DNA from: Myxococcales bacterium
Lineage (GTDB): Bacteria > Myxococcota_A > Polyangia > Polyangiales > DASUME01
NCBI GenBank assembly: GCA_047601445.1
Contig: JASGJH010000001.1
Location: 8,896,001 to 8,960,000, forward strand
Length of the DNA: 64,000 nt
Direction of reading: 5' to 3'
Shown here: positions 36,215 through 59,471 of the stretch, in pieces
Layout of the letters: each line of letters starts with the position of its first letter
Position numbering within the stretch: the first letter of the stretch is position 1
Position numbers and translations under genes: made by a program
Notes under the pieces: generated by a model
Database searches by the model: none
What the model was told of the DNA's origin: nothing
Seen by the model: the letters and a program-made list of their open reading frames with translations, nothing else

Positions 36215-37222
36215 TTGTCTCTTCTTGAAATCGCGCGCGATCAGGGCTTTGCGAGAGCCGAAGACACGCACGTCGGTCTGATGGACCGGGTCGCCGAGGA
36301 GGCTCGGGAGACCTTCCTTCAGCAGGCTGAAGCCATCGCTGCCATGGCCCAGCGGGTCGACCGCAGCTTTGGCCGAGCGGTCAGCCTCCTCTACGCCACC
36401 CCCGGCCACGTGATCACCATGGGCATGGGCAAGTCCGGCCACGTGGCTCGCAAGATCGCCGCCACCCTCGCTTCCACCGGCACCCCGTCCTTCTTCGTTC
36501 ACCCCGCGGAGGCCTTCCACGGCGACCTCGGCATGGTGACCGATCGTGATACGGTCCTGGTCTTCTCCTACAGCGGTGAGACCGAAGAGGTCCTGCGGCT
36601 GCTGCCGCACCTCAAGCGTGCTGGCGTGTCGGTGGTGGCCCTGGTTGGTTGCACCGAGTCCACCCTGGCGCGCGCCGCTCACGTGGCGCTCGACGTCTCG
36701 GTGGAGCGCGAGGTTTGTCCCAACAACCTGGCGCCCACGAACTCCACCCTGGCCGCGCTGGCCATGGGCGATGCCCTGTCGGTGGCCCTGATGCGCGCCA
36801 AGCAGTTCGGCGCCGAGGACTTCGCTCGTTTCCATCCCGGTGGCGCGCTCGGTAAGCGCTTGCTCACCCGGGTTTGCGACGTGATGCACCGTGGCTCGCT
36901 GCCCCTGGTGCGCCTCGACACGACCGTCCGCGAATCGCTGTTCACCATCACCCGCGGCCGTTTGGGCCTGGCTTTGGTGATCAAGGGCAAGTCCCTGCAA
37001 GGCATCGTGACCGACGGCGATCTGCGTCGCTCGATGCAGAAACACGAAGATGTGCTCGACCTGCCCGTGCAGGCCGTCATGAGCCCCAACCCGGTTTGCA
37101 TCAGCGAACACGCGCTCTTGAGCGAGGCCGAGGAGCTGATGCGCCAGCGCAAGCTCAAGGCACTGGTGGTGGTGGACGGTGCCGGTCGCCCGGTGGGAAT
37201 CGTCGAGATCTTCCAGCGCTAG
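36215..37222 (+). CDS. kpsF: Arabinose-5-phosphate isomerase (KpsF/GutQ, SIS plus CBS domains)
   Basis: GMGKSGH, ASTGTPSFFVHP.EA.HGDLG, NLAPT.ST, FHPGG.LG, TDGDLRR; start could be 36281. Confidence 0.93.
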   Translation: MSLLEIARDQGFARAEDTHVGLMDRVAEEARETFLQQAEAIAAMAQRVDRSFGRAVSLLYATPGHVITMGMGKSGHVARKIAATLASTGTPSFFVHPAEAFHGDLGMVTDRDTVLVFSYSGETEEVLRLLPHLKRAGVSVVALVGCTESTLARAAHVALDVSVEREVCPNNLAPTNSTLAALAMGDALSVALMRAKQFGAEDFARFHPGGALGKRLLTRVCDVMHRGSLPLVRLDTTVRESLFTITRGRLGLALVIKGKSLQGIVTDGDLRRSMQKHEDVLDLPVQAVMSPNPVCISEHALLSEAEELMRQRKLKALVVVDGAGRPVGIVEIFQR

Positions 37223-37238
37223 GCTAAGCTGACCTGCC

Positions 37239-38021
37239 ATGAGTCTCGCGCGGGGAGCGTTCATCCAGCTCAATGTGATCCACGCGCTGGTGCTCCGAGA
37301 GACGCGCACACGTTTCGGAGAGCATCAGCTCGGATATCTGTGGGCGCTGATCGAGCCACTGCTGTGGATCGGCAGCTTTTGGGGCCTCTACACGGTGAGC
37401 AATCGCCCCGCGCCCCACAACCTCGAGGTCACGGGCTTCCTCGCGACCGGGGTGCTTACCTACGAGATTTTCGATAGCAATGTCGGGCGCATCGGCGATT
37501 CCATCAACGGCAATCGACCGCTGCTCTTCTATCCTCCGGTGCAGCCGCTCGATCTGGTGATCGCTCGGGCTTCGTTGGAGACGGCGACCCTGACCGCGGT
37601 GTTTTTCGCGGTCATGGGCGGCGAGTCGCTGCTGCGCGGCGAAATCACCCATATCGATAGCCTATTGCAGGTCTTTCTGGGCATCGCGCTGGCCGCCATG
37701 CTCGGGGCCTCGCTCGGGCTGGTGCTCTGCATGCTCGGCGTGCTGTCCAATGTGGTCGAGCGCTTGCGCGGCCCGTTGATGCGTCCCTTGTTCTGGGTTT
37801 CAGCGCTTTTCTACACCCTGGATGACGTACCCACGGACGTGCGGGAGTTGATGCTGTACAACCCGGTCGTACACGTGGTCGAGATCGTGCGAGACGGCTG
37901 GTTCCATCAGTACACGGCCAAGCACGCCGATCCGCTGTATGTTGTCTGGTTCATCCTCGGCTTTGGCTTTCTCGGGCTGTTGCTCGAGCGGGTGGTTCGC
38001 CGAAAAATCGAGCTTTCATGA
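37239..38021 (+). CDS. kpsM: Capsular polysaccharide ABC transporter permease
   Basis: ALVLRETRTRFG..LGYLWALIEP, V.PLD..IAR, NPVVH..E..R. Confidence 0.92.
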   Translation: MSLARGAFIQLNVIHALVLRETRTRFGEHQLGYLWALIEPLLWIGSFWGLYTVSNRPAPHNLEVTGFLATGVLTYEIFDSNVGRIGDSINGNRPLLFYPPVQPLDLVIARASLETATLTAVFFAVMGGESLLRGEITHIDSLLQVFLGIALAAMLGASLGLVLCMLGVLSNVVERLRGPLMRPLFWVSALFYTLDDVPTDVRELMLYNPVVHVVEIVRDGWFHQYTAKHADPLYVVWFILGFGFLGLLLERVVRRKIELS

Positions 38022-38671
38022 TCGAGCTCAAGAACGTCTACAAGACCTACCCGACGATCACCGGGCCGAACGTGGTGTTGAACAACGCCTCCATCAAGTT
38101 CGCCGATCGTCAGAGCATGGGCATCTTGGGGCGCAACGGAGCCGGCAAGTCCACCCTGTTGCGGATCGTGGCGGGCGTGGAGCAACCGGACGGTGGAGAG
38201 ATCACGCGCACGGGGCGCATCTCGTGGCCGATCGGCTTCGGGGGCGGCTTCAGTCCCTCGCTCAACGGCGAGGAGAACTGCCGTTTCGTGGCGCGCGTGT
38301 ACGGTGAGGACGTGGATCGCGTGGTGGAGGCCACCCGGGCGTTCGCCGATCTCGGGACCTATTTTTACATGCCCATCCGTACCTACTCCTCCGGCATGCG
38401 AGCGAGGTTGGCGTTCGGCTTGAGCATGGCGGTCGACTTCGACATCTACCTGGTCGACGAAGTCACCGCGGTGGGCGACGTGCACTTCCAGGAGAAGTGC
38501 CGTCGTGCGTTCGATGAGCGGCGCGAGCGATCGTCGGTGATCATCGTCTCCCACAGCCTGGAGACCATTCACAGCTACTGCACGCAGTGTGCGGTGCTCA
38601 ACGCCGGCAAGCTCCGAGTCTTCGATAGCGTCGACGAAGCGGCCAAGGTGTACCAAGAGGTTTCTGCATGA
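38018..38671 (+). CDS. kpsT: Capsular polysaccharide ABC transporter ATPase
   Basis: GRNGAGKST, ISWPIG, TYSSGMRARLAFG, DEVTAVGD; 217 aa with no carbohydrate-binding extension. Confidence 0.94.
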   Translation: MIELKNVYKTYPTITGPNVVLNNASIKFADRQSMGILGRNGAGKSTLLRIVAGVEQPDGGEITRTGRISWPIGFGGGFSPSLNGEENCRFVARVYGEDVDRVVEATRAFADLGTYFYMPIRTYSSGMRARLAFGLSMAVDFDIYLVDEVTAVGDVHFQEKCRRAFDERRERSSVIIVSHSLETIHSYCTQCAVLNAGKLRVFDSVDEAAKVYQEVSA

Positions 38672-39363
38672 GTTCTGCCCCGTTGGCTCAGGTCGAATCG
38701 GCCGCTCCTGCCGCGCCCTTGAGCGCCGCCGAAGTGGCGCGCCAGATGAGGCACAAGAAGGCGCGTCGCCTGGCGCGCAACCTCGCGCTCTGGGTCGGGC
38801 TCCCCACGCTGCTTGCGATGCTCTACTTCGGAGTCGTGGCCCGCAGTCAGTACGAATCCTCGGCCACCATCGTGCTCGGTGGCGCCAACCCCATGCACCA
38901 GGCCGTCATCCTGCGCGAGTACACGCTGTCGCGCGGCATGCTGCGGAGGCTGGAGAAAGAGCAGGGGTTCTCTGACCACTTCAAAGAGAACGGAGACGTT
39001 CTTTCCCGGCTCGGCAAGCGGGCGGGCACCGAGAAGCGCTTTGCGTACTTCAAGGACCACGTACGCATCGACTACGACCAGACCTCGCAGGTCATGAACA
39101 TCAACGCGCGCGGCTTCACGCCCGAGGCGGCCAAGAAGTTCGCCAACGCCCTGCTCAGCATCTCGACCGAGTTCTTGGCCCAGAACTCACCGCCGGGGCA
39201 GAACGATCCTGGCGTCGTGATCGTGTCGCGCCCCGAGGCGCCCTCCGACTCGACCTATCCGCGGCGCATCTACGGCGTGGTGTCCACGTTCTTCGCGAGC
39301 CTGGCTCTGTTCGGCATCGGCTCGCTCTTGATCGCGTCGATCCGCGAGCACGCCCATTTCTAA
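38668..39363 (+). CDS. kpsE: Shortened KpsE-type polysaccharide co-polymerase (PCP-3)
   Basis: Two TM helices, Y.S.A, AR.FTPE.A, P..P..YPRR, IREH; only 231 aa. Confidence 0.8.
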   Translation: MSSAPLAQVESAAPAAPLSAAEVARQMRHKKARRLARNLALWVGLPTLLAMLYFGVVARSQYESSATIVLGGANPMHQAVILREYTLSRGMLRRLEKEQGFSDHFKENGDVLSRLGKRAGTEKRFAYFKDHVRIDYDQTSQVMNINARGFTPEAAKKFANALLSISTEFLAQNSPPGQNDPGVVIVSRPEAPSDSTYPRRIYGVVSTFFASLALFGIGSLLIASIREHAHF

Positions 39364-39372
39364 GGAGTATTC

Positions 39373-40206
<834 letters not shown>

Positions 40207-40209
40207 GCG

Positions 40210-40761
40210 ATGATGCCCGCCGATCTGCGTGAGCGTTTGAGGGCCATCAAGCTTCTCGTGCTTGACGTAGACGGTGTGTTCACCAACGGCAGCCTGTACT
40301 ACGGGCCCAGCGGCGAGTCCCACAAGCGCTTCCACGTGCGCGACGGCTTGGGCATCCGCATCCTCCAGCACTTCGGTGTGCAGATCGCGGTGATCTCCGC
40401 GCGCAAGTCTTCACTCGTGGAACAGCGCATGCGCGATCTCAAGATCGCGCACTGGCACACGGGGAAAGAAGACAAGCTCGAGGCGCTCGCCGAAGTCCTC
40501 GCTAGCTGCGGTTTGACGCTGGAGCAGACGGCCTATCTGGGCGACGACCTGCTCGATGTGCCCGTGATGCGCAAGGTCGCCCTGGCCCTGGCCGTGGCGG
40601 ACGCCCATCCGTACACGCGGGATGCTGCGCACCACGTGACCTCGGCCCTCGGGGGCGAGGGGGCTATCCGCGAGGTGGCGGACGCTATCCTCGACGCTCA
40701 GCTCGGGCTCGCGACGGCCTATGAAAAGTTCCTGGCGGCTCTGACCAAGCCGTCCCGTTGA
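40210..40761 (+). CDS. kdsC: Kdo-8-phosphate phosphatase
   Basis: LDVDGVFT, F.VRDG.G, GDDLLD, GGEGAIRE. Confidence 0.92.
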   Translation: MMPADLRERLRAIKLLVLDVDGVFTNGSLYYGPSGESHKRFHVRDGLGIRILQHFGVQIAVISARKSSLVEQRMRDLKIAHWHTGKEDKLEALAEVLASCGLTLEQTAYLGDDLLDVPVMRKVALALAVADAHPYTRDAAHHVTSALGGEGAIREVADAILDAQLGLATAYEKFLAALTKPSR

Positions 40762-40781
40762 TCTCCTGTCCGGGAGGAGCG

Positions 40782-41552
40782 ATGTCGATGGATTTTCGCG
40801 TGGTGATTCCAGCTCGCTTCGGCTCGTCGCGCTTGCCGGGCAAACCGTTGCTTCCGATCGCCGGCAAGCCGATGATCGAGCACGTTTGGCAGCGCGCGCA
40901 GGAGTCGGGTGCCCGTGAGATCGTGGTGGCCACCGACGACGAGCGCATTTTACGGGCCGTCGAGGCGTTTGGCGGTCGCGCCGTGATGACCCTGCCGACC
41001 CACGCTTCCGGTACTGATCGGCTGGCGGAGGTGGCGCAGACGCTCGGCTGGCCCGAGCAAACCATCGTGGTGAACCTACAGGGGGACGAGCCGTTGTTGC
41101 CGGGGCGCTGGCTCGCGCGCATCGCGAGCCTGCTCGACCGCGAGACCCGCGCCGGCATCGCGACCCTCGCCACGCCCGTGACGAACCCCGTCGACATCGG
41201 GAATCCGAACGTGGTGAAGGTGGTGCTGGATCAGGAGAGCTTTGCGCTCTACTTCAGCCGAGCGCCGATTCCCTGGGTGCGCGACAGCTACGCTGCGCCC
41301 GGTGGCTTCAGCCTTGGGCACGACGTGCCGGTGCTGCGCCACCTCGGGCTCTACGCCTACCGCGTGGGCGCCCTGACGCGTGTGGCCAGCAGTCCGCTCG
41401 CGGCGCTCGAACGGGCGGAGGCACTCGAGCAACTGCGCGCCCTCCACTTGGGCATTCGAATCTGCGTTGAGGTCACCACGGAAAGCCTGGGACACGGTGT
41501 CGATACGGCATCGGACCTGGAAGCGGTCGCGGCCATCCTGCGAGCGCGGTAG
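40782..41552 (+). CDS. kdsB: CMP-Kdo synthetase (KdsB/KpsU)
   Basis: IPARFGSSRLPGKPL, SGTDR, NLQGDEP, ALYFSR, HLGLYAY, LEQLR. Confidence 0.95.
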   Translation: MSMDFRVVIPARFGSSRLPGKPLLPIAGKPMIEHVWQRAQESGAREIVVATDDERILRAVEAFGGRAVMTLPTHASGTDRLAEVAQTLGWPEQTIVVNLQGDEPLLPGRWLARIASLLDRETRAGIATLATPVTNPVDIGNPNVVKVVLDQESFALYFSRAPIPWVRDSYAAPGGFSLGHDVPVLRHLGLYAYRVGALTRVASSPLAALERAEALEQLRALHLGIRICVEVTTESLGHGVDTASDLEAVAAILRAR

Positions 41553-41567: not shown

Positions 41568-44500
41568 ATGAAAGTCCTCTACTACCTCGAGCCGTACGTC
41601 GAATTCGGCAATCCGCTATTCCGCATGGCGACCATTCGCAATCATCTGGAGCCCGAGATCGCGGGCCTCCAGCTGGCGCGGGCGAGGGACGTTGAGGTGC
41701 GCCTCCTGTGCTCGGAGGCCGTGGCGGATGTGATTCGCGTCGAGGCTCGTTTGCCCGGTGTGCCTCTGGTGACCGTGGCGCAGGCCGAGTTGGAGCCGAT
41801 TTATCCGGAGTATCTCGAGGCGTCGGCGCGCTTCTACGAGGGAAACTACACCGGCGCAGCGCTCGAGCGCGCCATGGCATTGTACCGACGAAAGCTCGGG
41901 GCCTACGAGCCCGACGTGATCGTCTGCTACGAGTCCAACGCGCCGTTCCTGGCCAAGCTCTTTCCGCGCGCATTGTTCCTTCACAACACGCTCGGCATCT
42001 TTTCGAGAGCGCCGTTTCCGGAGACGTCTGCGCTCGATCCATTCGGTATCGGCAAGGACTCGTACCTCTCGCGCTGCGGCACCCAGCTCACGGCGCTCGA
42101 ACTCTCGGGGGCGCAACGAGCTCGGCTGGAGCGCTTGAAGGAGAGCGCGCAGCGCGCGCAGGTGGAGCGGAGCCCGCTTGCCCGGGCTGCTTTGCGGCAG
42201 GGGTACGAGCGCGTGGTGCTGCTGCCGCTGCAGGTCTCCAAGTACTTCATGTTCGACGAGAACCTCCCTGAAGAACTTCGGGGCGTCGACCAGCTGGGCC
42301 TGCTCGAGCGCGTGCTCGAAGGTGTCGACCGAAAGATCGGCGTGTGCGTTACCATGCATCGTTCGGAGGCGCGCTTGCTCACGCCGACGCGCTGCAAGGA
42401 ACTGCGCGCGCGCTTTCCCCACTTCCTCTACGACCCGGACGTGCAGCGGGTTCCCTGGCCTTCGCAGCACGTGCTTCCTCACGTGGACGGCGTGGTCACG
42501 GTCTCTTCGGCGGTCGGGCTCTTGGCGATGCTCTGGGATCTCCCGATCGTGGGCCTGGGGCGTTCGCACGTGGCCGCCATCGCATCCAGTCGTTCGCTCG
42601 CGGATTTGCCGAGCTTGCTCTCGAACCCACCGCACGGTGCCCGCGACGGGGCGCTCTATCATCTGCTCACGACCTACTACCCGCAGATGGACCGCTTCCA
42701 CCATCAAGGAGACTGGTATCGGGGCTTTCTGGCGGACTGTCACGCGCGCAAGGACGAGCCGTGTCGCCTCGGATTCTTCCGTGAGATCGCCGATCCGGAC
42801 CAAGTCTTCGAGGGCCTCATCCAGGGCCTGCGCGCCGACGAGGCGAACTCTGCAGCGAGCGCGACGTCCATGAAGGGCACGATGGGAACGAGCCAGGGTG
42901 GGGCGCTGCGCAGCAAGCTGCAGCAGGCGGACGTGGTGTCGTTCGACGTATTCGACACGCTGGTGACGCGCCCGCTCTCGGAGCCGAACGCGCTGTTCGA
43001 CTTGATCGCAGAGCCGGCCAGTCAAGCCTTGCTTCGTCATGGCGTGCGCATCGAGGACTTCGGCGAGTTCTCCGAGCTGCGCCGGCAGGCCGCCAAGCAT
43101 GCGTCGGCCGAGGCCCTCGAGAGCGGCTCCGAGGAATACAACCTCTTGCTGGTGTACGGGTGGTTGGTCCGCAAGCTCGGCGCTCCGCAGGCCTTGGTCG
43201 AGGAGCTCAAGGCCATCGAAGAGCAGGCGGAACTCACCATCGCGTTGCCGCGCGAGGCGGGGCGCGAGGCCTATCAGCAGGCGTTGAACCTGCGCAAGCG
43301 CGTGCTCTTGATCTCGGATACCTATCTGGATTCGCGCTTGGTGGCCGACATCGTGAAGCGCTGCGGCTACACGGGGTTCGAGCGACTCTTCGTGTCGTCT
43401 GACTTCGGCAAGCTGAAGCGCACGGGGAACCTCTACGGGCAAGTTCGGCTGCTGGTGGGGGCCGGGCAGCGTTGGCTCCACGTCGGAGATAACTCGCTCT
43501 CGGATGTACGCGTGCCGGAGCGGCTCGGGATTGGCGCCTATCATCTGTCGAGCGCCACCACGCACTACGCCAACGATCCGCTGGTGCGGGCTGCCTTGCC
43601 GTCCAAGCCTGGCACGAGCTTGGGCGCACGCATCGCAAGCGGCGTGATCGCGCGCAAGTTCTTCGACCGGCCTACCGCGAGTCCGCGAGAAGCCCGCTTC
43701 GACGGCAGCCCCTATCGACTCGGCTTCGAGGCGGGGGGGCCGCTCTTCCTGGGGTTCGCCAGCTGGATCCTCGAGGAGGCCCGGCGCGACGGCATCACGG
43801 ATCTCTATTTCCTCGCGCGCGACGGGCTCGTGCCGAAGCAGGTCAGCGAGCTCTTGCTCGAGGGCGGTGGGGAAGGGCCGGCGACGCACTACATCTGGGC
43901 CTCGCGTCGGGCCTATCTCACCGCGGCGCTCGAGACTCCCTCCGACGTGCTCTCGACCCTCGGCTTGCTCTTCCGCACCGCGACGGTGCGCAGCTTCTTC
44001 GGTGAGCGTTTCGGGCTCGAGGAAGCGGCGCTGGTGCCCGGATCGCTGAGCGCGGCGGGGTTCGGTTCCATCGATGATCCCATCGTTCAAGACGATGCCA
44101 CGGACATGGCACGCCTGCGCACGTTGGTGCTGGCCAATGTGGACGGCGTCCTCGCTCGTGCGAGCCAGGAGCGTGAGCTCTTGATGGGCTACTTGAGGGA
44201 GCGCGGACTGTTCGATCCGCACCGCAAGATCGCGCTGGTGGATCTCGGTCACAACGCGTCACTGCAGGTGGCGCTCGCGCGCCTCTCGGGCCGCAAGGAT
44301 CTCGTGGGGTACTACTTCGCGACCTTCAAGGGCGCGCGAGGTCCCTACCTGCAAGGGCACGCTCTGAAGAGTTACCTGATCGAGTTCGAGGACGCCGCGC
44401 GCAGCGATCATCCCTATGCCCGCAACCTGGGGGTCTTCGAGTTCCTGTTTCTGCCCCCCGAGCCTTCCTTCATGCGCTTCGAGCAGACGTCGCAGGGAGA

Positions 44501-44966
44501 GCGGCGGCCCGTGTTCGCCGAGGTCGACGAGCGGCCTCGCTTCGACGTGGTGCGGGAAGTGCAGCGCGGAGCCCTCGATTTTGCCAGGGACGCCGTGCAG
44601 GCCAGCCTCGGACAGCGGCAGGCGCTCGGCATGTCGAAGAACGAGGCGACGCGTTCTTTCGCCAAGTACTGCGTCGAGCCCGACTTGGCCGACGCCGAGC
44701 TGTTGAACGGTATCGGTTTCGCGAGCGGTCTCGGCAGTCGCGACGTGCACTACCTGATCGCGCCAGTGAGCTTCCACCAACACCGTGTCAATGAGAGCTG
44801 GTGGCGGATCGGCGCGGAGGTGGTGGTCGGTCTGCGGTCGAGCAAACCGAGCGCGCTGGGTGACGCGGGGGCCTGGAAGCGCAAGCTGCTGAAGCTCCAG
44901 CGCGATCCCGGGCGCTTCTTGTCGGACATGCGGCTCGTGCGCAAGTTGCGCGAGTTCGTGGACTGA
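41568..44966 (+). CDS. Multidomain polysaccharide biosynthesis protein: beta-Kdo-transferase-like domain, HAD phosphatase and PRT-like domain (putative ribofuranosyltransferase)
   Basis: LPLQV and VTVSSAVGL..L; SFDVFDTL, LISDTY, HVGDN..SD; LYFLARDG, LVDLGHNASLQ. Confidence 0.75.
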   Translation: MKVLYYLEPYVEFGNPLFRMATIRNHLEPEIAGLQLARARDVEVRLLCSEAVADVIRVEARLPGVPLVTVAQAELEPIYPEYLEASARFYEGNYTGAALERAMALYRRKLGAYEPDVIVCYESNAPFLAKLFPRALFLHNTLGIFSRAPFPETSALDPFGIGKDSYLSRCGTQLTALELSGAQRARLERLKESAQRAQVERSPLARAALRQGYERVVLLPLQVSKYFMFDENLPEELRGVDQLGLLERVLEGVDRKIGVCVTMHRSEARLLTPTRCKELRARFPHFLYDPDVQRVPWPSQHVLPHVDGVVTVSSAVGLLAMLWDLPIVGLGRSHVAAIASSRSLADLPSLLSNPPHGARDGALYHLLTTYYPQMDRFHHQGDWYRGFLADCHARKDEPCRLGFFREIADPDQVFEGLIQGLRADEANSAASATSMKGTMGTSQGGALRSKLQQADVVSFDVFDTLVTRPLSEPNALFDLIAEPASQALLRHGVRIEDFGEFSELRRQAAKHASAEALESGSEEYNLLLVYGWLVRKLGAPQALVEELKAIEEQAELTIALPREAGREAYQQALNLRKRVLLISDTYLDSRLVADIVKRCGYTGFERLFVSSDFGKLKRTGNLYGQVRLLVGAGQRWLHVGDNSLSDVRVPERLGIGAYHLSSATTHYANDPLVRAALPSKPGTSLGARIASGVIARKFFDRPTASPREARFDGSPYRLGFEAGGPLFLGFASWILEEARRDGITDLYFLARDGLVPKQVSELLLEGGGEGPATHYIWASRRAYLTAALETPSDVLSTLGLLFRTATVRSFFGERFGLEEAALVPGSLSAAGFGSIDDPIVQDDATDMARLRTLVLANVDGVLARASQERELLMGYLRERGLFDPHRKIALVDLGHNASLQVALARLSGRKDLVGYYFATFKGARGPYLQGHALKSYLIEFEDAARSDHPYARNLGVFEFLFLPPEPSFMRFEQTSQGERRPVFAEVDERPRFDVVREVQRGALDFARDAVQASLGQRQALGMSKNEATRSFAKYCVEPDLADAELLNGIGFASGLGSRDVHYLIAPVSFHQHRVNESWWRIGAEVVVGLRSSKPSALGDAGAWKRKLLKLQRDPGRFLSDMRLVRKLREFVD

Positions 44967-47215: not shown

Positions 47216-47447
47216 GGAGGTGGGGCCAATCGGCACTCGCCCGATATCATACATGAATCCCGCTGGCCACGGGACCTGCTAAGGGTGCCGGCGCAGCCGT
47301 GGTGCGGGCCTGCTGCCCGCGCGGATGCGGTTGGCGTTCACGGCGCCTTCTTGTTATCACCGCTGCTCCGTTTTCACTGCGCTCGAGCGGTGAGTTAAAG
47401 GCGCGATGCTTCACGACTTGCCCAGCTACCGTAGGCGTTGTCGGTCG

Positions 47448-49596
47448 GTGATTGGCCTCGAGGATCTCACGATGGTCCTGGCCGTCCGGCTGCACCAGGG
47501 CAATCCCTGGCTGCTCGACCGCATCACGGTCCTTCGCCAGCACTACCGTGAGCTTCCTGCCACCGTGGTGGTCGACTTCGGCTCGGCCGAGCCGTTTCGC
47601 TCGCAGCTCGCGTCCGTGTGCGCTGCGAACGGACTCATCTACGTCTTCGAGGACGACCAGGGGACCTACTCGGCGGCCCGAGCGCGCAACCTCGGTGCCC
47701 GGGCTAGCCAGACCGCGTTGCTGTTCTTCAACGACGTGGACTGCTTTGGCGAAGCCGACTTGTTCGAGCGCCTGGTGGAGCACGCCAATCGCCTCGAGAT
47801 GGGGAGCTACCTCGAGCAAGTGGTGAACCTGCCCGTGTACTCTCTGGGCGAGGACGAGACAAACGAAGTGTGGAGCGCACCGCCCGCCGTGCGCGGGGAG
47901 CTCCTGGCGCGCGGCATGATCCGCAAGGCCTACCAGCGCTTCGATACCCAGGCTTACCAGTACGTGGACCCGGCTTCGAACTTCTTCCTGATCCGGCGCG
48001 ACTTCTTCGAGCTGGTCGGGGGCTACAACGAGAGCTTCCGCGGACATGGTTCGGAGGACTTCGAGTTCTTCCTTCGACTCGCACACTACACCGATCAGTT
48101 TCCCTTGCCGGAAGCCTTCGAGCGCGACCTCTATTCGCCAGCCAACCCTGCTTTCTTCGGCCACAAGCTGTATCGCGGCTTTCGGCGCTACATGGAGTTG
48201 ATGGCCTTCCAGGCCGAGTGCGCCGGCCTGCGCGTCGCTCACCTCTACCACGCGCGCGGACAGGGCAGCTGGTACGAGCAGAAGGACCGCGGAAAACGCC
48301 GCTTTGCCGAGCAGATCGAGGGCTACCGCAAGAGCCCCAGCCAACTGCTCGAGCGTGACTGGCTGCCGCGCGAGAAGCGCGCGCTCGTCCTGCTCAAGCA
48401 CGAACAGCAATATCAGTACTTCCTGCCGTTGCGTCTGCTCGGCTACCGGCTGCAGCTCATGTTGTCAGGCGACGCCGAGAGCGAGGGGCGCGCACGCCAG
48501 GCGCTCGAGTCGGGGCAGGTCGACGTGGTGGCCGTGTTCAATCCCTACATGGGATCTCACAAGGAACTTTGGCCGTGGGTCGAGCGGGCACGGGCGAAGG
48601 GCGTGAAGCTCCTGGTCACCGACCGCGGCATGCTGCCGGAGAGCTGGTTCTTCGCCGAAGACATGCCCTACGGCGACTCCGAGTACACCCAGCTCGATCC
48701 CGCGCGCTGGCTCTTCGACGAGGAGGAACTGGGAGATCGCCCGCGAGTACGCGCGCACGCTGCGCAAGGGAGGGGTCACGCTCGAGCAAAACGGGGACTT
48801 CGAAGCCACGGTCGCCCGACGTAGGGGCCCGGCAGGGCAGCTCTGCGTGCTCATCCCACTGCAGCTCGACGATGACGTGGCAGTGACCTTTTTCCACGCC
48901 GCGCACGAGCCTTACGCCAAGTTCGTGGCCGACATCGCCCAGGTGGCCAAGGCGCATCCCCAGGTGCGCTTCCTGGTGAAGACGCACCCGCTCTCCAAGC
49001 GGCCCTTCGAGGCCCGCGCCGAGAACATCGTGGTGTGCGACAGCGATGACAACATCCATGCGCTGATCGAGCTGTGTGATGCCCTGGTCTGCTTCAACAG
49101 CGGCGTGGGCTTTCTCGGCTTGATCCACGAAAAGCCGCTCGTGACGGTGGGTAACGCATTCTACAACCTGCCTGGTACGGGGCAGCGTGCGAGCGCCTTG
49201 GCGCAAGCCTTGGCGCAGGTCGTGGCCCAGCGCAGCGCGCCCGAACCCGAGCTGATGACCCGCTATCTGGCCTGGCACCTCTTCCACAAGTACGCCTTCT
49301 TCAAGGCGACCTCCGAGATCCAGGAGCTGCGCACGCGCCGCGCCCATCACTACCGGAACCTGCTTCCTTATCAGCTCGCGGGAGACCAGCTGGCCTCGCT
49401 CCGCGCCTCGGTGGATTACCGCTTCGACCCCGCGTCTTACGCAGCGGGCAAGCTCGTGGTCTCGGCCAGCCCGCTCGCAGGGGGGGTCCGCCTCAGAAAC
49501 GAGGGCTCCTTGCTGCTGCGCAAGCTGCGCAAGCTGGCCCGAGACCCAAGGCGCTTCGCGCGCGATTCGAAGCTGGGGCGCAAGATCCTGGGGTGA
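47448..49596 (+). CDS. GT2 plus beta-Kdo-transferase-like fusion, interrupted by a +1 frameshift near 48731
   Basis: GT2 motifs (VVDFGS, RARNLG, FNDVD, GY.E.F.GHGSED) followed by PLQLDDD, KTHP, NSGVG, GNAFY in the next frame; removing one G of CTGGGAG joins ORFs 47406..48824 and 48847..49596. Confidence 0.75.
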
Positions 49597-49611: not shown

Positions 49612-51333
49612 GTGGCGTCGGGGCATGCCTCTGCTACCGCCTTGGAACGAGGAACCTGCTTGCTTCGCCTTCTCGCAATCTGGTCTGGCTTGTTTCTGCT
49701 CCTGGTGGGCTGTGGCTTGTCGGTGGCGTTCGTCCTGGAGCGCTTGGGAGGGGATCGCTTTCGCAGACCCGTGACGACGACTCAGGCCTTCTGGTTCGGC
49801 TACGTGATCACGATCGCCTTTTTGCAGCTGTGGTCGCTGGCGTTTCCGATTCGGCTACCGGCCTTGCTGGTGCTCGTGGGCTTGAGCGCACTCGGGTTCT
49901 TCGTCTCGGGGGATCCGCTCCGAGCCCGGCTGCGGGCCTGGCGTCACCGACCCCGTCGCGTGTTGGCGTTGAGTGCGTTCACGATCGTCATCGCCGTCGT
50001 GGTGGCGTTGTATGCGGTTAACACGGTCATCTGGTACGACACGCACCTGTACCATCTGCAGGCCGTCAAGTGGGCACGCTTCCACCCGGCCATACCGGGC
50101 ATCGCCAACCTGCATAGTCGGCTGGCTTTCAACAACAGCATCCATCTGTTCGCGGCGATGACGGAGTCGTTCTGGAAGGCGCAGTCGTCCCATATTGCGC
50201 TCGGCTTCCTGACGACCGTCGTGCTCGTGCAGCTGGTCGCCCCACTGATCCAGCGCGTCGACCATCGTCAAGGTCGGCGCTCCGTGGCGTTCGCTCTGGT
50301 GATGGTGCCGTTCCTCCTCAGTCGCTTGCCGTCCCAGGAGGTCAACTCACTGTCCACGGATCTGGCGCTGGAGCTGCTCTGCATCGCATTCATCATGGAG
50401 CTCTTGCGCTTCGACTCCCGGCGCGAGGTTGGGCTGCAGCTCGCGCTCCTCTTGGGGCTGGCCGCGGCGGCCACGACCACCAAGCTCGGGGCGCTCGCGC
50501 TCGCGATGACGGGCCTCGCGCTCGCGGGGTTCGTGCTCCGCAAGGGAGGCCATGGCGCACGCACCCTGCTGGCGGTGGCTCTACCGTCCGCACTGGTCGC
50601 CGTCGGCTACGTCGCGCGCCATGGCGTGCTTTCGGGTTGGTTGCTGTTCCCGGTGCCGGTCGCTCAGCTGCCGGTGTCGTGGGCCTACGCGCGCGAAGAT
50701 GCGATCGCGTTGTTCCGTTGCATCGAAAGCTGGGCAAAAATCCCCGGTGTGACGCCTGATGAGGTCCTCGACCACGGCTTCCGGCACTGGTTCGATCCCT
50801 GGTTCAGGCGGATCCAGGGCTCGCGCGAGCTCTTGCTGCTCGCGATCAGCGTGCTGTTCGCGCTGCTGCGCTTCGCGTCCCCCCGCGGGAAAGCCTCGGT
50901 GGTCGATCGCTTTGCCATCGGCGGCGTGGCTCTGTCCCTCATGTTCTGGTTTCGCGGGGCCCCCGATCTGCGCTTCGGGGCGGTGTTCTTCTGGTTGCTG
51001 TTGGCCGTGTTGCTCGTCGAGCCTGTGGCCCGCATCTGCCAGACCCAGGCGGGGGCAGTGGTGGCGCTCGGCCTCAGCCTGGCGCTCGCCAACTGGGCAG
51101 GCGGCATCAGGGTCGGCTTCGAGCTCCCCGCGTCCCTGACCGACATTCCGCCGATCACTCCGATGGCCGCCACGAAAAAGGTCGAGCTGTCCCCGGGGTT
51201 GATCTCCTATGTGACCCTGGATGGTGGGGACCAATGCAGCAATTCCCCGCTACCCTGCACACCGTACCCCCTCGGGCAGCGGTTGCGGGAGGGCAAGAAC
51301 TTGAGGGCTGGTTTCCTGGCCAAGCCTCGCTAA
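49612..51333 (+). CDS. Polytopic membrane protein, LIC_10190-like (putative GT-C glycosyltransferase)
   Basis: More than 10 hydrophobic segments; YDT.LYH.Q.V.W, PGIANLH.RLAFN, SG.LLFP, APDLRFG, LPCTP. Confidence 0.65.
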   Translation: MASGHASATALERGTCLLRLLAIWSGLFLLLVGCGLSVAFVLERLGGDRFRRPVTTTQAFWFGYVITIAFLQLWSLAFPIRLPALLVLVGLSALGFFVSGDPLRARLRAWRHRPRRVLALSAFTIVIAVVVALYAVNTVIWYDTHLYHLQAVKWARFHPAIPGIANLHSRLAFNNSIHLFAAMTESFWKAQSSHIALGFLTTVVLVQLVAPLIQRVDHRQGRRSVAFALVMVPFLLSRLPSQEVNSLSTDLALELLCIAFIMELLRFDSRREVGLQLALLLGLAAAATTTKLGALALAMTGLALAGFVLRKGGHGARTLLAVALPSALVAVGYVARHGVLSGWLLFPVPVAQLPVSWAYAREDAIALFRCIESWAKIPGVTPDEVLDHGFRHWFDPWFRRIQGSRELLLLAISVLFALLRFASPRGKASVVDRFAIGGVALSLMFWFRGAPDLRFGAVFFWLLLAVLLVEPVARICQTQAGAVVALGLSLALANWAGGIRVGFELPASLTDIPPITPMAATKKVELSPGLISYVTLDGGDQCSNSPLPCTPYPLGQRLREGKNLRAGFLAKPR

Positions 51334-52221: not shown

Positions 52222-53400
52222 ATGGCGAAAGGGACCGGAAAGCGCGGAAATTCAGGGTCGGCTGCTCACCCACAAGCAGAGTCGATCTCCGAGTCGCCGC
52301 TGGTGTCCGTCGTCATTCCTTCCTACAACCACCGCCGCTTCATCGGTAAGGCCGTCGACTCGGTGCTGCAGCAGTCGCACCAGAACGTGGAGCTCATCGT
52401 CATCGACGATGGCTCGTCCGACGGCTCGGCCGAGCTCTTGCGCGAGGCCTACGGCAGCGACCCTCGCGTGCAGCTACGGGCGCGGGAGAATCGCGGTGCC
52501 CACGCCACCCTCAACGAGGCGGTTGGGCTCGCACGCGGAGAGTTCGTCACGATCTTGAACTCGGACGACCTCTACCTTCCCACGCGCCTGGAGCGCTTGG
52601 TTCAGGCGGCGAGGCAGCACGGAGGCCACCCCTTCTTCGGCATCACCGGGGTGCGCATCGTCGACGAGCGCGATGAGCCGCTGCCCGTGAGCGGTCCCAC
52701 CCGCTACTACGCTTCGGTGCTCGACAAGTTCGAGGGACGTCCGGCGGCGGCCGCTTTCTGGGTCGGCAACCTCGCGATGACAACCTCCAACTTTTTCTTC
52801 TCGCGTGGGCTGCTGGAGAAGGTCGGGACCTTTGCCCCCCTGCGCTACACGCACGACTGGGATTGGGCGCTGCGTGCATCCGAGGTCGTGAGCCCGGTTC
52901 GGCTCGACGATGTGCTGCTTTGCTACCGTGTCCACGGCACCAACACCATCGCCGAGGGCAACATGTGGAAGCACGTGTCCGAGAACGCCTACGTCTTCGC
53001 CAGCGCCATCAAGCGCGCTGGCATCGAGCGCATGGCGGAGCGCGCTGGCGTGAGTCCTCACGAAGTCATGCAGGCCATGTTGGCCAACGAGAGCTTCGGG
53101 CCCGTCCCCACGCTGTTCTTGCTCGGCCTGGGCAAGTCTCCCGAGGAGCTCACGCAGCTGCTCGAGCGGGGCGCCCTGGAAGAGATGCTGCCCAAGCTGG
53201 TGGGGCGCTCACGGGTCGATACGGATCTCATGTTGTCGGCCGAACACCTGCGTCACAAGTTGGGTGACAAGCCGGCCCATGCGTCGCCGAAGCCCGCGGC
53301 CAAGAAGGCCAAGCCCAAGGGACCGCTCACCGCACTGCGCGCCGCGGGCAAGCGCGTGCGGAAGAGCTTGCGAAGCGCCCTCTCCGAGAAGCGCAAATGA
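52222..53400 (+). CDS. GT2 glycosyltransferase
   Basis: VSVVIPSYNH, IDDGSSD, N.GAHA.LN, LNSDD, HDWD, YRVHG.NT. Confidence 0.9.
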   Translation: MAKGTGKRGNSGSAAHPQAESISESPLVSVVIPSYNHRRFIGKAVDSVLQQSHQNVELIVIDDGSSDGSAELLREAYGSDPRVQLRARENRGAHATLNEAVGLARGEFVTILNSDDLYLPTRLERLVQAARQHGGHPFFGITGVRIVDERDEPLPVSGPTRYYASVLDKFEGRPAAAAFWVGNLAMTTSNFFFSRGLLEKVGTFAPLRYTHDWDWALRASEVVSPVRLDDVLLCYRVHGTNTIAEGNMWKHVSENAYVFASAIKRAGIERMAERAGVSPHEVMQAMLANESFGPVPTLFLLGLGKSPEELTQLLERGALEEMLPKLVGRSRVDTDLMLSAEHLRHKLGDKPAHASPKPAAKKAKPKGPLTALRAAGKRVRKSLRSALSEKRK

Positions 53401-56400
53401 CGATGACGCCGCCCGGCAAGGACCGCGTCACGACGCTGGACGTGTGGGACACGCTCTTGCGCCGGCGCTGTCACCCGGACGAGGTGAAGCTGGCCAGCGC
53501 GGATTTCGTGCGCATTCACCATGGCGCACGGCTGTTGCCCGAGTTCGCCAGCGCGTCAGCCATCTTTCAGCAGCGCAGGCAGGCCGAGATCCGCATCGGC
53601 AACAAGAACCGCGCGGAGGGCCACGACGACGAGTACCGCTTGATCGATGTTTGGCGTTCGGCGCTGACGGTGATGCTCAAGCCATCCGAAAGCGCCCTCT
53701 TGGAAGAGGTGGCCGCGGCTGCGCAGCGCAGCGAGCTCGCTTTCGAAGACCGCGTCACCTACGCCAATCCGTCGATCCGCGCGTTCCTGCAGGAGCAGGC
53801 CGTGTCGGAGGCGCATCTCCTGAGCGATTTCTACGTGGGAGGGGCCGACCTGCTGGAGTTGGTGCGACGCAAGCACCCTGGGCTCGCGCTGGCGGGGGCC
53901 ATGGTGTCGTGCGACGAGGGCGTGACCAAGCGGTCGGGACGCCTGTACCGCCGCTTCGAGCGCGTGTGCGAGATCGAGCCGGCCCAGCATCTCCACATCG
54001 GCGACAACCAGGAGAGCGACGTGCTGAGCGCGCGTCGGGTAGGGCTCACGGCACTCCACTATCAAGACGCTGTGGAGGAGCAGAAGCGGGCTAATCTGGC
54101 CAAGCAGTTCGAAGCGCGTATGAAGGGCGACTACTCGTCGTACTGGAAGACGCTGCGCTCACGGGGCGCGGCCAGCGCGGCGGCCGATGCACGTCACGAG
54201 GACCCTCGCTTCCAGTTCGGGGTCGAGCTCGCGCCTCTGTACGTGCTGTACGTGCTGTTCGCGCTCGAGCAGGCCGCTCGGGCCGGTGTCGACAAGGTTT
54301 ACTACTTCACCCGCGAAGGTGAGGTGTTGGCCCGCATTCATGCAGCGATCGCCGCGGCCTGTCCGGATCGTCAGCTGCCGGCGGCCGATCTCCTCGAGGT
54401 GAGCCGTCTGGCCACCTTCGGGGCTTCCATCGCCGGCCTCGAGTTGCCGGAGCTGAACCGCTTCTGGACCATGTACTCGCGGCACTCCGTCAACACGCTG
54501 CTGGTGTCGCTCGGGCTCGACCCCGCGGCCTACGCGGACCTGGTGTGGGAGGCAGGCCTCGATCCCGAGCAGCTGGTGATCGAGCCGTGGCGGGACCCGC
54601 GCTTCCTCGGGCTCCTCGAAAATCCCAGCTTCAAGTCCAAGGTGGAGGCCGGACTCGCGCGCCGTCGCGCGGACTTGATGGACTACTTCGGGCAACACGG
54701 GCTCACGCCGCAGAGCCGGCGCGCCGTGGTCGTCGAGATCGGCTGGCGCGGCACCATCCAGGACAACCTGGCCCGCATCTTCCCTGACGTGGAGTGGCAG
54801 GGCGTCTACCTGGCGCTGTTCCGCTACCTCAATACGCAGCCCGAAAACGCGCTCAAGACGGCGTTCCTGCTGAATGACAATCAGGGCGACACGGCCGAGA
54901 AGGTGCTGCGTCCACAGGCCCCGCTCGAGATGCTCTTCAACTCGGCCTCGGGCAGTGTCACGGGCTACGTGCGGGAAGGGGAGCGCGTGGTCGCCACCCG
55001 CAAGTCCGCCGAAGGCGAAGACCGTGTGTTCCATGCATTCACGGGAATGGTGCAGGAGGGGGTGCTGGCTTCCGTGCCGGGCATCGTGCACTTCCTGGAG
55101 GAGCGCGCGCTTTCGCCCCTGGAGCTGCGCATGCAAGCGCGGCGCATGGCGGAGGACTTGCTCAGCATGCCGCCTCGCGCCTTCGCGCGCGCCTACTTCG
55201 AGCTCGAGCACAACGAGACCTTCGGCGTCGGTGGCTTCGTGCGCAAAGAGGGGCAGCTGGTGCGCGACGTACTCAGGACCGGCTCCGCGAGCAAGGCTTG
55301 GAAGCTCCTGAGCGAACGGCCGAAAGAGAGCGGCTGGGTCGCAGGCTTCCATGCTGCACACTCGGGTGCAGGCGGGGCCGACGTCATCACGCGCCTCGCC
55401 GCGGGCCAGAAGGACCTCAAGCGCGTGCCCAAGTTGCTGGGCCGAATTTCGCGAGAGGTCTGGAAGGGCACCAAGAAGCGTGGACTGGTCCCGGTATTGG
55501 CGGACATTCGCGATGCCTTCGTGACCAAGCCTCAGCCGGCCCCCGAGAGCATTCGCATGATTCCGCTCGTGCAGACGGCCGAGCTGCAGAACGAGCACTT
55601 GCTGCGCTTCAACGAGGAAATGCTGTCGGCGCGTCGCGCGGCCAGCGGTCCGTTCGTGGTGGCGTGGCTCATCCCCGACATCGGATACGGTTCGGGCGGG
55701 CACATGACGCTGCTGCGCTTCGTGCGTCACTTCCGCAGCCTGGGCATCGTCAACAAGGTCTACGTGCACGGCAAGTCGCGTCACCGTGACCGCACCGCGC
55801 TCGAGAAGTTCGTGCGCACCAACTACGGCCCCATCGAAGGTATCGAGTTCTACGAGAACTCCGAGACCATCGACGACAGCGACATCCTGATCGCCACCCA
55901 CTGGACCACGGCCTACGAGGTGTTCCGCCAGGAGAACACGCGCTTCAAGGCCTATTTCATCCAGGACTTCGAGCCCCACTTTTATCCCAAGGGGTCGCTC
56001 GGCGTGTTCGCCGAGAACACCTACGCGATGAACCTGTACGGAGTGTGCGCGAGCCCCTGGCTGTTCGAGGTCGCGCAGCGCTACGGCATGCAGGCGTGCG
56101 GCTTCCACCTCGGGTACGAGCCCGAGACCTACTACGTCGACCCGCTCGCCGAGCGGGACCCGAACCGCGTGGTGGTCTACATGCGACCCAGCACGGAGCG
56201 CCGCGGCACCGAGCTCCTGCTGGCAGCGCTCCTCCTGGTTCAGCGAGAGCGTCCGCAGACGCGCATCTCCATCTTCGGGACCCCGAGCATTCCGGCGGTC
56301 GGGCTCAAGGCCGAGATCATGGGCTTGTTGAACGAGGAGCAGCTGCGTCGCCTGCACAGCGCCTCGGCCATCACCTTGCTCACCTCCCTCACCAACTACT

Positions 56401-57115: not shown

Positions 57116-58234
57116 GTGACCAACCAGCGCGGGGGCGATTTTGCGGCCCATGGGGGGCGGAAGCTCTTTTGCTTCGGCTTCCATCCCTGGAAGAGGGGCT
57201 ACGTGCGGCGCTACCTGGCGCACGAGGGCAACGCGCGCTTTGCGCGGACCGCGCTCGAGGCCTCGCTCAAGGGCTTCGACGCCGACAGCCGCATCGTCGT
57301 GTGGGGCTCCGGTGAGTCGGAGGACGTGCGGGATTTGGCCGCCCGCTACGACGTCCCGATCTGGCGCATGGAAGACGGCTTCCTGCGTTCCGTGGGCCTG
57401 GGCGCGGAGCGCTATACGCCCGCCTCGCTCGTGCTGGATCGCACCGGCATCTACTACAACCCGCAGACCACCAGCGACCTCGAAAAGCTGCTCGCCGACG
57501 GCATCTTCGGCAGTGCGGATCTCGAGCGTGCCCGCCTGCTCCGCGAGGGCATCGTGCGGCTGGCGCTCAGCAAGTACAACGTCGGCGATCGCACCGCGAG
57601 TTTGCCCACGGTGCCGGAAGGGCGCACCGCGATTCTGGTGCCGGGCCAGGTGCAGGACGACGCCTCGATTCGCCTGGGTTGCATCGACCTTCGGACCAAC
57701 CTGGACCTCTTGAAGGCGACCCGCGAACGTCGGCCTGACGCGTTCATCATCTTCAAGCCCCACCCGGACGTGGTGAGCGGCAACCGACGCGGCGCGGTCT
57801 CCGCCGAGGACGCGCGACGCTACGCCGACGTGGTGGTCGAGGATGCGCCGCTACCGGCTTGCCTCGGCCTCGTTCAGGAGGTCCACACGCTCACCTCCCT
57901 CGTGGGCTTCGAGGCGCTCATGCGAGGGCTTCGCGTCAACGCCTACGGCTTGCCGTTCTACGCCGGCTGGGGCCTCACCGAAGATCGCCATGCCCACTCG
58001 GGACGCACGCGGCGCCTCACGCTCGACGAGCTGGTGTGCGCGACCCTCATCCGCTATCCGCTCTACCTCGACCCGAACACGCTGCGCCCGAGCTCGCCCG
58101 AGCAGGTCGTGGAGGACCTGGCCCAGGCCGTGCGCGACGACAGAAACCGGCCCATCCAGATCTCTTGGCTGAAGCGTCACGCGCGCAAGGCTGGCAACGC
58201 TCTCAAGGCCATGTTGGGCCGGAATGGGCAGTAG
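57116..58234 (+). CDS. kpsC: Single-domain KpsC-type beta-Kdo transferase
   Basis: EDGFLRSVGLG, GIYY, LSKYN, GQVQDDASI, KPHPDV, S.VGFEAL, G.PFYAGWGLT. Confidence 0.88.
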   Translation: MTNQRGGDFAAHGGRKLFCFGFHPWKRGYVRRYLAHEGNARFARTALEASLKGFDADSRIVVWGSGESEDVRDLAARYDVPIWRMEDGFLRSVGLGAERYTPASLVLDRTGIYYNPQTTSDLEKLLADGIFGSADLERARLLREGIVRLALSKYNVGDRTASLPTVPEGRTAILVPGQVQDDASIRLGCIDLRTNLDLLKATRERRPDAFIIFKPHPDVVSGNRRGAVSAEDARRYADVVVEDAPLPACLGLVQEVHTLTSLVGFEALMRGLRVNAYGLPFYAGWGLTEDRHAHSGRTRRLTLDELVCATLIRYPLYLDPNTLRPSSPEQVVEDLAQAVRDDRNRPIQISWLKRHARKAGNALKAMLGRNGQ

Positions 58235-59471
58235 CGGCGTGTCTGCTCTCGAGCTCGGGGTGCGAAACGCGCTGCTGCTGCAGGGGCCGATGGGGCCCTT
58301 CTTCCGCCATTTCGCCGACGAGTTGCAGGCCCAGGGCATCCAGGTCACCAAGCTCAACTTCAACGCTGGCGACGCGCTCTACTTTCGAGGACCAGAGGCG
58401 CGCAGCTATCGCGGTCGGCTCGACGGGCTCGGCGCTTATTTCGAGCAGCTCATGCGCGAGCAGCGCATCGACGGCGTGTTCTTGTTCGGCGACGGGCGTC
58501 CGGTGCACCGCAAGGCCATCGAGGTGGCGCAGCGACTGGGCATCCGGGTCTTCGTGTTCGAGGAGGGCTACATGCGCCCGGACTGGATCACGCTGGAAGA
58601 GGGCGGCGTGAACGGTCACTCGTCGCTGCCCCGTGACCCGGCCTTCTATCGCGCCTTTTCCCACGAAGAGGTGCCGGAGGCCGTGCGCGTCAAGTCTAGC
58701 TTCGGGCGCGCGGGCTGGTTCTCCACCGCTTACTCCATCGCGCTCACGCTCGGCTTCTTCGCATACCCGTACTACCGTCACCACCGCCCGCTCAACGCCT
58801 TCGTCGAGGCCTTTCGCTGGGTGCGCGGCGGTCTGCGCAAGCAGATCTTCGTGCGGCGCGAGCGCGGGCTCACCGAGTGGCTCTCCGAGACACGGCACAA
58901 GCAGTTCTTCCTGGTGGCCATGCAGGTGCACTGTGACTACCAGCTCGTGCATTCTCCGTTCGACAGCGTGGAGCAGTTCCTCGAGCAGGTGATGGCGTCC
59001 TTCGCGAAGCACGCGCCCAAGACGCAGTCCCTTGTCATCAAGAGCCACCCGCTCGATCGACCCTACCGTGAGCACGGACCCTTGATTCGCCGCCTGAGCC
59101 AGCGCTTCGGCCTCGAGGGGCGGGTCACGCACGTGCACGACTTGCACCTGCCCACGTTGCTCCGACACGCGAGCGGCGTGGTCATGATCAACAGCACGGT
59201 GGGGCTGCAGGCGGTGCAGGCTGGCACTCCCGTGAAGGTGCTGGGGCACGCGGTCTACGACATGGCTGGCCTCACGTACCAGGGCTCGCTCGAGGCCTTC
59301 TGGCGCGATCCGGGCAGCGTCGATCTCGAGCTCTACAAGGGCTTCCGCGCGCACCTCATGCAGGCGAACCAGGCCAACGGCAGCTTCTATCGGCAGCTTT
59401 CACAGTCGCCCCTGAAGGCCGGCTTGATCTGGCCGCCGGCGCTCACGGACGGCTCGGCGATCAAGTCCTGA
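58224..59471 (+). CDS. kpsS: KpsS beta-Kdo transferase
   Basis: LLQGPMGPFF, NFNAGD, FGD.R..H, FEEGY.RP..ITLE..GVN..S, QVHCDYQ, K.HP.DR, NSTVG. Confidence 0.92.
   Translation: MGSSGVSALELGVRNALLLQGPMGPFFRHFADELQAQGIQVTKLNFNAGDALYFRGPEARSYRGRLDGLGAYFEQLMREQRIDGVFLFGDGRPVHRKAIEVAQRLGIRVFVFEEGYMRPDWITLEEGGVNGHSSLPRDPAFYRAFSHEEVPEAVRVKSSFGRAGWFSTAYSIALTLGFFAYPYYRHHRPLNAFVEAFRWVRGGLRKQIFVRRERGLTEWLSETRHKQFFLVAMQVHCDYQLVHSPFDSVEQFLEQVMASFAKHAPKTQSLVIKSHPLDRPYREHGPLIRRLSQRFGLEGRVTHVHDLHLPTLLRHASGVVMINSTVGLQAVQAGTPVKVLGHAVYDMAGLTYQGSLEAFWRDPGSVDLELYKGFRAHLMQANQANGSFYRQLSQSPLKAGLIWPPALTDGSAIKS

Follow-up and report, generated by a model that had tools for sequence, protein, structure and literature searches.

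Textbook accounts describe Kps capsule export as a single sealed KpsMT-KpsE-KpsD conduit. The closest described relative of the locus considered here is the KpsMT-KpsE complex of Schlegelella thermodepolymerans (PDB 8TSH/8TSW): in PMC11041684, the KpsE dome comprises residues 34-172 and 322-329, the crown consists of helices alpha5 to alpha8 in between, KpsE-KpsE contacts lie mostly in the dome, and KpsM is contacted at TM2. The distal hairpin is not resolved in that work, and its contact with KpsD, which the first-pass annotation of the present DNA had cited as known, is there a prediction worded as 'most probably' and 'conceivable'. What would such a machine do if the parts that reach toward the outer membrane were gone? 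Engineered E. coli strains lacking kpsD or kpsE resemble this state in having the transporter and the Kdo anchor without the bridge; their polymer is found on spheroplasts but not at the surface, i.e., it stays on the inner membrane (PMC11041684). Those are laboratory mutants, whereas here the state is natural, under selection and of more than one origin.

Among other exporters, the Wzm-Wzt (O-antigen) and TarGH (teichoic acid) transporters likewise need no PCP-OPX conduit; they flip their lipid-linked glycans to the outer side of the cytoplasmic membrane, but use undecaprenyl-diphosphate carriers and a ligase, whereas KpsS and KpsC here suggest an anchor of phosphatidylglycerol-Kdo, and neither a ligase nor an acceptor was found. 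The CpsC and CapA proteins are short, and these Wzz-like (PCP-2b) co-polymerases resemble the protein described below in that two TM helices flank a short extracytoplasmic domain. They serve Wzy polymerases, however, and are often accompanied by a tyrosine kinase; the present protein instead nests among KpsE sequences and is encoded beside KpsMT. Other Polyangiales carry a full kpsF-lipoprotein-kpsM-T-E-D-kdsA-C-B-kpsC-S locus with the same gene order and 50-69% identity in KpsM and KpsT; relative to it, our locus has cleanly lost kpsD and the lipoprotein gene, has no crown in KpsE and, in the source genus, has kpsC cut to one module. Our literature search, which covered sources other than subscription reviews of the PCP and OPX families (where an earlier mention is possible), found no paper on a crown-less KpsE or on a natural kps locus without KpsD.

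The window, a stretch of 64,000 nucleotides, belongs to a 9.5-Mb single-contig genome (G000; 98.7% complete, 5.4% contaminated), which the names borne by close homologs assign to Polyangiales, and encodes, on the forward strand, kpsF-kpsM-kpsT-kpsE-kdsA-kdsC-kdsB, followed by glycosyltransferases and then by kpsC and kpsS. The arabinose-5-phosphate isomerase gene kpsF (36215..37222; start codon uncertain) scores over the TIGR00393 cut-off and is separated by a 16-bp gap (37223..37238) from kpsM (37239..38021), which encodes the membrane subunit of the ABC transporter; the ATPase gene kpsT (38018..38671) follows. KpsM keeps the equivalents of the S. thermodepolymerans residues R35, W45 and R94 and has Asp at the R89 position; a changed KpsM specificity through this substitution was considered and rejected, as the position varies across Polyangia in full and short loci alike. 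The Walker A, signature, Walker B and H-loop motifs of KpsT are intact. Downstream of kpsE, CMP-Kdo supply is complete with kdsA (Kdo-8-phosphate synthase; 39373..40206), kdsC (Kdo-8-phosphate phosphatase; 40210..40761) and kdsB/kpsU (CMP-Kdo synthetase; 40758..41552) in addition to kpsF; G000 has Kdo synthesis genes in the kps locus only.

The gene after kpsT (38668..39363) has a GC3 of 0.88 and encodes 231 residues: TM1, a dome, TM2 and, as in solved KpsE, a C-terminal P..YPRR and REH end. Its start overlaps the kpsT stop in ATGA, and kdsA begins 9 bp downstream of it, in line with the coupling to kpsT and the adjacent kdsA noted in the first-pass annotation; the 9-bp spacer (39364..39372) is where relatives carry a kpsD of about 540 codons. 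The protein matches TIGR01010 (the BexC/CtrB/KpsE family) in pieces, with an E-value of 1.9e-35 and 122.7 bits; the deletion is the reason it falls below the whole-protein cut-off of 437.5. It aligns to residues 62-175 and 326-373 of the solved KpsE chain in 8TSH (E 7.4e-14), leaving 176-325, about 150 residues, without a counterpart: these limits match the published borders of dome and crown, so that the deletion takes the crown and spares the dome. In place of the whole crown stands a 12-residue turn, AQNSPPGQNDPG (translation; 39178..39213), and the spacing of the flanking anchors is 33 residues as compared with 173-178 in proteins with the long helical crown and distal hairpin. An AlphaFold model (pLDDT 79) places the two hydrophobic helices at residues 20-57 and 200-229 and the four dome strands at 61-70, 132-137, 142-149 and 183-187, and Foldseek matches it to solved KpsE with a best E-value of 2.6e-13 and a TM-score of 0.70 (8TSW). 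These results uphold the earlier description of a protein that keeps both TM helices, the base domain and the conserved C-terminal end while an in-frame replacement removes the hairpin. That description of the deletion was right about the crown but overlooked a second loss, in the lumenal L2 loop (38875..38898, limits approximate), where some 18 residues are missing (S64-S88 spacing 23 versus 40-43). A complex prediction with four copies of residues 28-231 gave a median of 0.38 (mark 0.42), a value that argues on neither side of the question of binding. The nearest feature clusters in the ESM Atlas are Wzz-domain proteins of 215-220 residues (score 0.95). Family similarity, the TM helices around a four-stranded dome and the KpsMT partner genes together identify the protein as a KpsE (PCP-3) by descent, which would work like the inner-membrane module of a group 2 capsule system.

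Is the shortened protein an isolated case? KpsE homologs fall into 32 clusters, 22 of which are 221-265 residues long with identities down to 43%, and in all 22 the anchors A155 and P189 are 30-33 residues apart. Genome-anchored proteins fall into three spacing classes: crown-less (30-33), partial (91-134) and full (173-178); in partial forms, the middle of the crown is gone. A profile search of 50%-identity representatives listed 150 matches, and in the pooled set, with a query that favors short forms, 210 of 221 sequences kept both ends (11 partial sequences were dropped), 43 of them crown-less, 74 partly shortened and 93 full. A metagenome scan yielded only six loci, including three crown-less ones of <3.6 kb. 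Eight crown-less clusters of 211-231 residues (P0160, P0184-P0190) form a separate family whose nearest full-length relatives include a protein named as Burkholderiaceae; this family is possibly a third origin of crown-less KpsE, outside Polyangia. Polyangia-type full kpsE genes also turn up under the record labels Sedimenticola and Halobacteria, as well as on one metagenome contig (L064, L066, L074), either through transfer or through mis-binning.

Among relatives, the short form goes with the absence of KpsD, defined here as a 540-residue OPX named from its position and its Poly_export-SLBB domains. In a sample of 251 genomes of the order, 45 match TIGR01010: 29 have a full KpsE, one a frameshifted full KpsE (G175), ten a short one and five only weak Wzc-like matches; one full-KpsE genome was then left out. 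A phylum sample of 401 genomes adds one crown-less, one partial and one full case (G325, G523 and G454), all from the same class. In the final set of 42 Polyangia genomes, 30 with full and 12 with short KpsE (six crown-less, six partial), a KpsD ortholog is present in 27/30 of the former and 0/12 of the latter, where searches give just 25-33% partial matches to other OPX proteins. In 25 full loci kpsD comes after kpsE, whereas G022 has it upstream of kpsF and G138 on a different contig; in each of the three full genomes without it (G093, G166, G169), a contig ends at the locus. In G000, no KpsD was found by protein search, by tblastn or with a profile of 26 KpsD sequences (the last giving two weak, distant OPX matches only), no OPX family match was found among 30 ORFs tested from 34-64 kb of the window, and no full-length kpsE lies elsewhere in the genome. 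The lack of a kpsD at 36-64 kb, stated in the first-pass annotation, and the co-occurrence of short KpsE with kpsD absence, which it proposed to test, thus hold, and the genome-wide search that it proposed turned up two OPX genes, neither of them kpsD, far from the window. Draft assemblies (87-99% complete) make up 11 of the 12 short-crown genomes, and G022 shows that kpsD and kpsE can become separated, so an assembly gap could hide a kpsD in some of them.

KpsD may not be the only partner to have gone. A gene for a lipoprotein of ~120 residues precedes kpsM in 28 of the 29 full loci that hold this stretch and in none of ten short loci; a search of G000, where the 16-bp gap takes its place, did not find it. 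The lipoprotein (L054:7906-8262 and its equivalents) has conserved AASGR.CR, C and W.FVP motifs, weakly resembles DUF5061 and tracks kpsD; it is a candidate for an extra part of Kps export or a helper of KpsD.

In a KpsM+KpsT tree of 44 rows, not firmly rooted, the short state changes four times, two of them forced by strong branches, and the AU test rejects any topology that groups all five crown-less rows (p 0.00015). The crown-less form thus arose at least twice; a FastTree KpsE tree, weakly supported, serves as a hint only. Well-supported branches provide two independent short/kpsD pairs (four on all branches), both in the expected direction (sign test p 0.5): with only two, the correlation between KpsE and KpsD is consistent but falls short of statistical proof. 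Partial crowns already lack kpsD, which suggests an order of events in which kpsD was likely lost first, the crown tip next and the whole crown last. Taken together, sequence comparisons indicate that the capsule machine of myxobacteria without found LPS genes has lost its outer-membrane-reaching parts more than once, the rest remaining intact.

What would the remaining machine export? The first beta-Kdo transferase gene, kpsS (58224..59471), is present in all six crown-less genomes; in the window its product matches PF05159 (E 1.9e-76), is 51% identical to a relative's KpsS and contains the QXXXD and HP motifs. The adjacent kpsC (57116..58234) has the QVQDD and HP motifs of a C-terminal module only; it is the single such place in the genome and is closer to the C module (50% versus 37%). 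This C-only state is shared by G000, G076, G047 and G083; G006 has an N-like module only. G325 keeps both modules, and on this ground the idea that a crown-less KpsE requires a KpsC of one module was rejected. In PMC10148158, KpsC-C adds the second Kdo and the two KpsC modules alternate, which predicts a two-Kdo linker in the source genus. With neither a crown, a cognate OPX (of KpsD or CtrA/BexD type) in G000 nor a two-module KpsC, the locus should not be filed as a standard ABC-dependent (group 2) capsule exporter. The genes between kdsB and kpsC include two for 1100-residue proteins (41568-44966 and 53397-56840) that fuse a common HAD-type domain to glycosyltransferase-like parts and are candidate polymerases; the first matches PF05159 weakly and is a candidate polymer enzyme. 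A GT2 + PF05159 gene (47406..49596) is split by a frameshift near 48735, either an assembly indel or a real break, and is a single 732-aa frame in a relative (L041). Past the window edge (G000 8959884-8975000), further genes of the glycan cluster encode a NeuB-type nonulosonic acid pathway and two Wzx-type flippases, and further along with an acyltransferase and a sulfotransferase.

Our preferred model, to which we give a probability of about 0.5, is that KpsMT, in a collar of dome-only KpsE, flips a Kdo-glycolipid across the inner membrane and that the glycolipid then stays on the periplasmic face. KpsS and the single KpsC-C module would make a short, probably two-Kdo, linker on phosphatidylglycerol; glycosyltransferases of the cluster would lengthen the chain; KpsMT would flip the product, steadied by the dome ring; and the glycan would form a periplasmic layer anchored in the inner membrane. 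We estimate the ring at ~30 Å high (80 Å of resolved height minus the alpha5 extension), and the periplasm measures 210-442 Å, 327 Å in M. xanthus (PMC9603273), which puts the outer membrane out of reach. Why keep the dome at all? KpsMT without KpsE has been purified only as an inactive mutant; together with the inner-membrane location of polymer in E. coli mutants, this suggests that the dome is likely kept as a stabilizing collar, a reason we infer, since KpsE is dispensable for inner-membrane crossing in E. coli (PMC11041684). Against this model, it is hard to see what purpose a bulky polymer would serve in the periplasm, and many glycosyltransferases of the locus are of kinds seen for surface glycans. 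Of the two destinations first proposed for the glycan, the better fit is the inner membrane's periplasmic face, while another route or acceptor has lost its obvious candidates, as described below.

The main rival, unlikely though it may be, is carriage of the flipped glycolipid to the outer membrane without any OPX, by a TamB/AsmA-type bridge or an unrecognised translocon, giving a surface glycolipid in place of LPS. Such a glycolipid would be useful in cells without lipid A genes, and its likely two-Kdo linker recalls Kdo2-lipid A. The cells are diderm (Omp85 in 15/15 genomes), and searches found no lipid A pathway, LptF/G or LptD in G000 or in most of the Polyangiales covered: LpxC occurs in 2/43 genomes, both full-crown, LptF/G in 1/43 (G038, on a short contig of a 7%-contaminated draft) and LptD in 0/30, the last with a model so narrow that it matched only 2/14 controls. 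The absence of LPS thus seems to be order-wide and not particular to short loci, in agreement with the title of a paper on LPS-lacking Sorangium (Keck 2011). TamB-family genes, present in 15/15 genomes with four in G000, keep a lipid route outward possible, but they are also present in all three full-crown genomes examined. Even for canonical systems it is debatable whether the lipid anchor gets as far as the outer membrane, and CPS can face the periplasm during transit. Model searches of G000 found no LpxC, LpxB, LptF/G, LptD, LCP, Wzi or YjbH and KdtA below cut-off only (the Wzi model scored over cut-off in no control), so that the usual alternative routes appear to be missing: Lpt ferrying the glycolipid as a stand-in for LPS, ligation to lipid A-core as in O-antigen export (Wzm-Wzt, WaaL, Lpt), LCP attachment to peptidoglycan and a Wzi or YjbH barrel were each considered and set aside. 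Nor does any shared new gene adjoin short kpsE in the mapped loci.

A borrowed OPX is quite improbable. Two PF02563 genes do exist in G000: a lipoprotein OPX at 1.307 Mb, which has no adjoining PCP in the source genus, and a short OPX at 2.12-2.14 Mb, next to a Wzc and a barrel-like gene. Both have Wzc-like partners of their own, however, at 6.219 Mb and 2.12 Mb, respectively; relatives' copies of the lipoprotein OPX gene adjoin a Wzc-like gene (in G036 and G226) whose G000 homolog is the one at 6.219 Mb. Full-crown genomes have both OPX types too, as do same-genus genomes in which no kpsE was found. G161 and G219 have a single PF02563 match each, in frames of 210 and 243 residues, and the short KpsE is without the helices through which an OPX is predicted to dock. 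In several Polyangiales (L117, L118, L119, L123), a lipoprotein OPX gene lies beside ~1500-aa PKS/NRPS-like genes, with a Wzc-like gene next in two of these loci, an odd polysaccharide-polyketide cluster.

Transfer of the flipped glycan to a periplasmic acceptor, protein or peptidoglycan, is a still fainter prospect. Multi-helix membrane proteins, putative GT-C-type transferases, are encoded in three crown-less glycan clusters: a LIC_10190 family member and two DUF2142 proteins in G000 (window 49612-51333; G000 8977089-8979230 and 8982558-8984108) and DUF7657 proteins in G076 and G047. But they share no family (over cut-off, LIC_10190 is found in 1/30 and DUF2142 in 1/44 genomes; DUF7657 in 2/44), none occurs in the six partial-crown genomes or in G325, there is no LCP ligase, and they may serve the two Wzx-type flippases of the cluster; known ligases, moreover, use pyrophosphate-linked donors. 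A single shared GT-C-like replacement gene was sought, and none is common to short-crown genomes.

It is very doubtful that the locus is decaying after kpsD loss and its product useless. Only half of kpsC remains, a frameshift splits one glycosyltransferase gene, and searches of four of nine same-genus drafts found no kpsE, but purifying selection is seen on kpsE, kpsM, kpsT and kdsA. Between G000 and the three closest loci (L060, L071, L072), dN/dS is 0.16, 0.19 and 0.16 for kpsE, with 0.07-0.14 for kpsM and 0.03-0.11 for kpsT; comparison of kpsE with two distant loci, L061 and L062, gives 0.40 and 0.58, with synonymous sites near saturation. Crown-less proteins have diverged to 43% identity while keeping frame and junction length, and kpsS was found in all six crown-less genomes. 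An assembly error or single-strain deletion is refuted by independent assemblies, the same junction being found in five other genomes and in 22 protein clusters from several sources. The earlier view that the deletion has evolved rather than decayed is thus corroborated, the closest relatives are not all full length, and short KpsE is real, conserved and recurrent.

If the periplasmic model is correct, then myxobacterial capsule exporters without their outer-membrane-reaching parts likely leave a lipid-anchored sugar chain between the membranes rather than building a surface capsule. That lineages in nature have given up KpsD and the crown while retaining the transporter, the Kdo anchor and the KpsE dome argues that the dome has a job beyond bridging. 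Their hosts appear to lack LPS and Lpt, so the Kdo-glycolipid may bear on how such envelopes are built: it is conceivable, though we hold it only tentatively, that LPS-free Polyangia have repeatedly made the capsule machine a new envelope pathway, with a phosphatidylglycerol-Kdo lipoglycan that would either line the periplasm like a Gram-negative lipoteichoic acid or reach the outer membrane, OPX-free and Lpt-free, as an LPS substitute. The full, tip-less and crown-less forms offer a stepwise series of natural deletions with which to map the KpsD contact, and the short-KpsE lineages a system for asking whether a capsule lipid anchor ever leaves the inner membrane.
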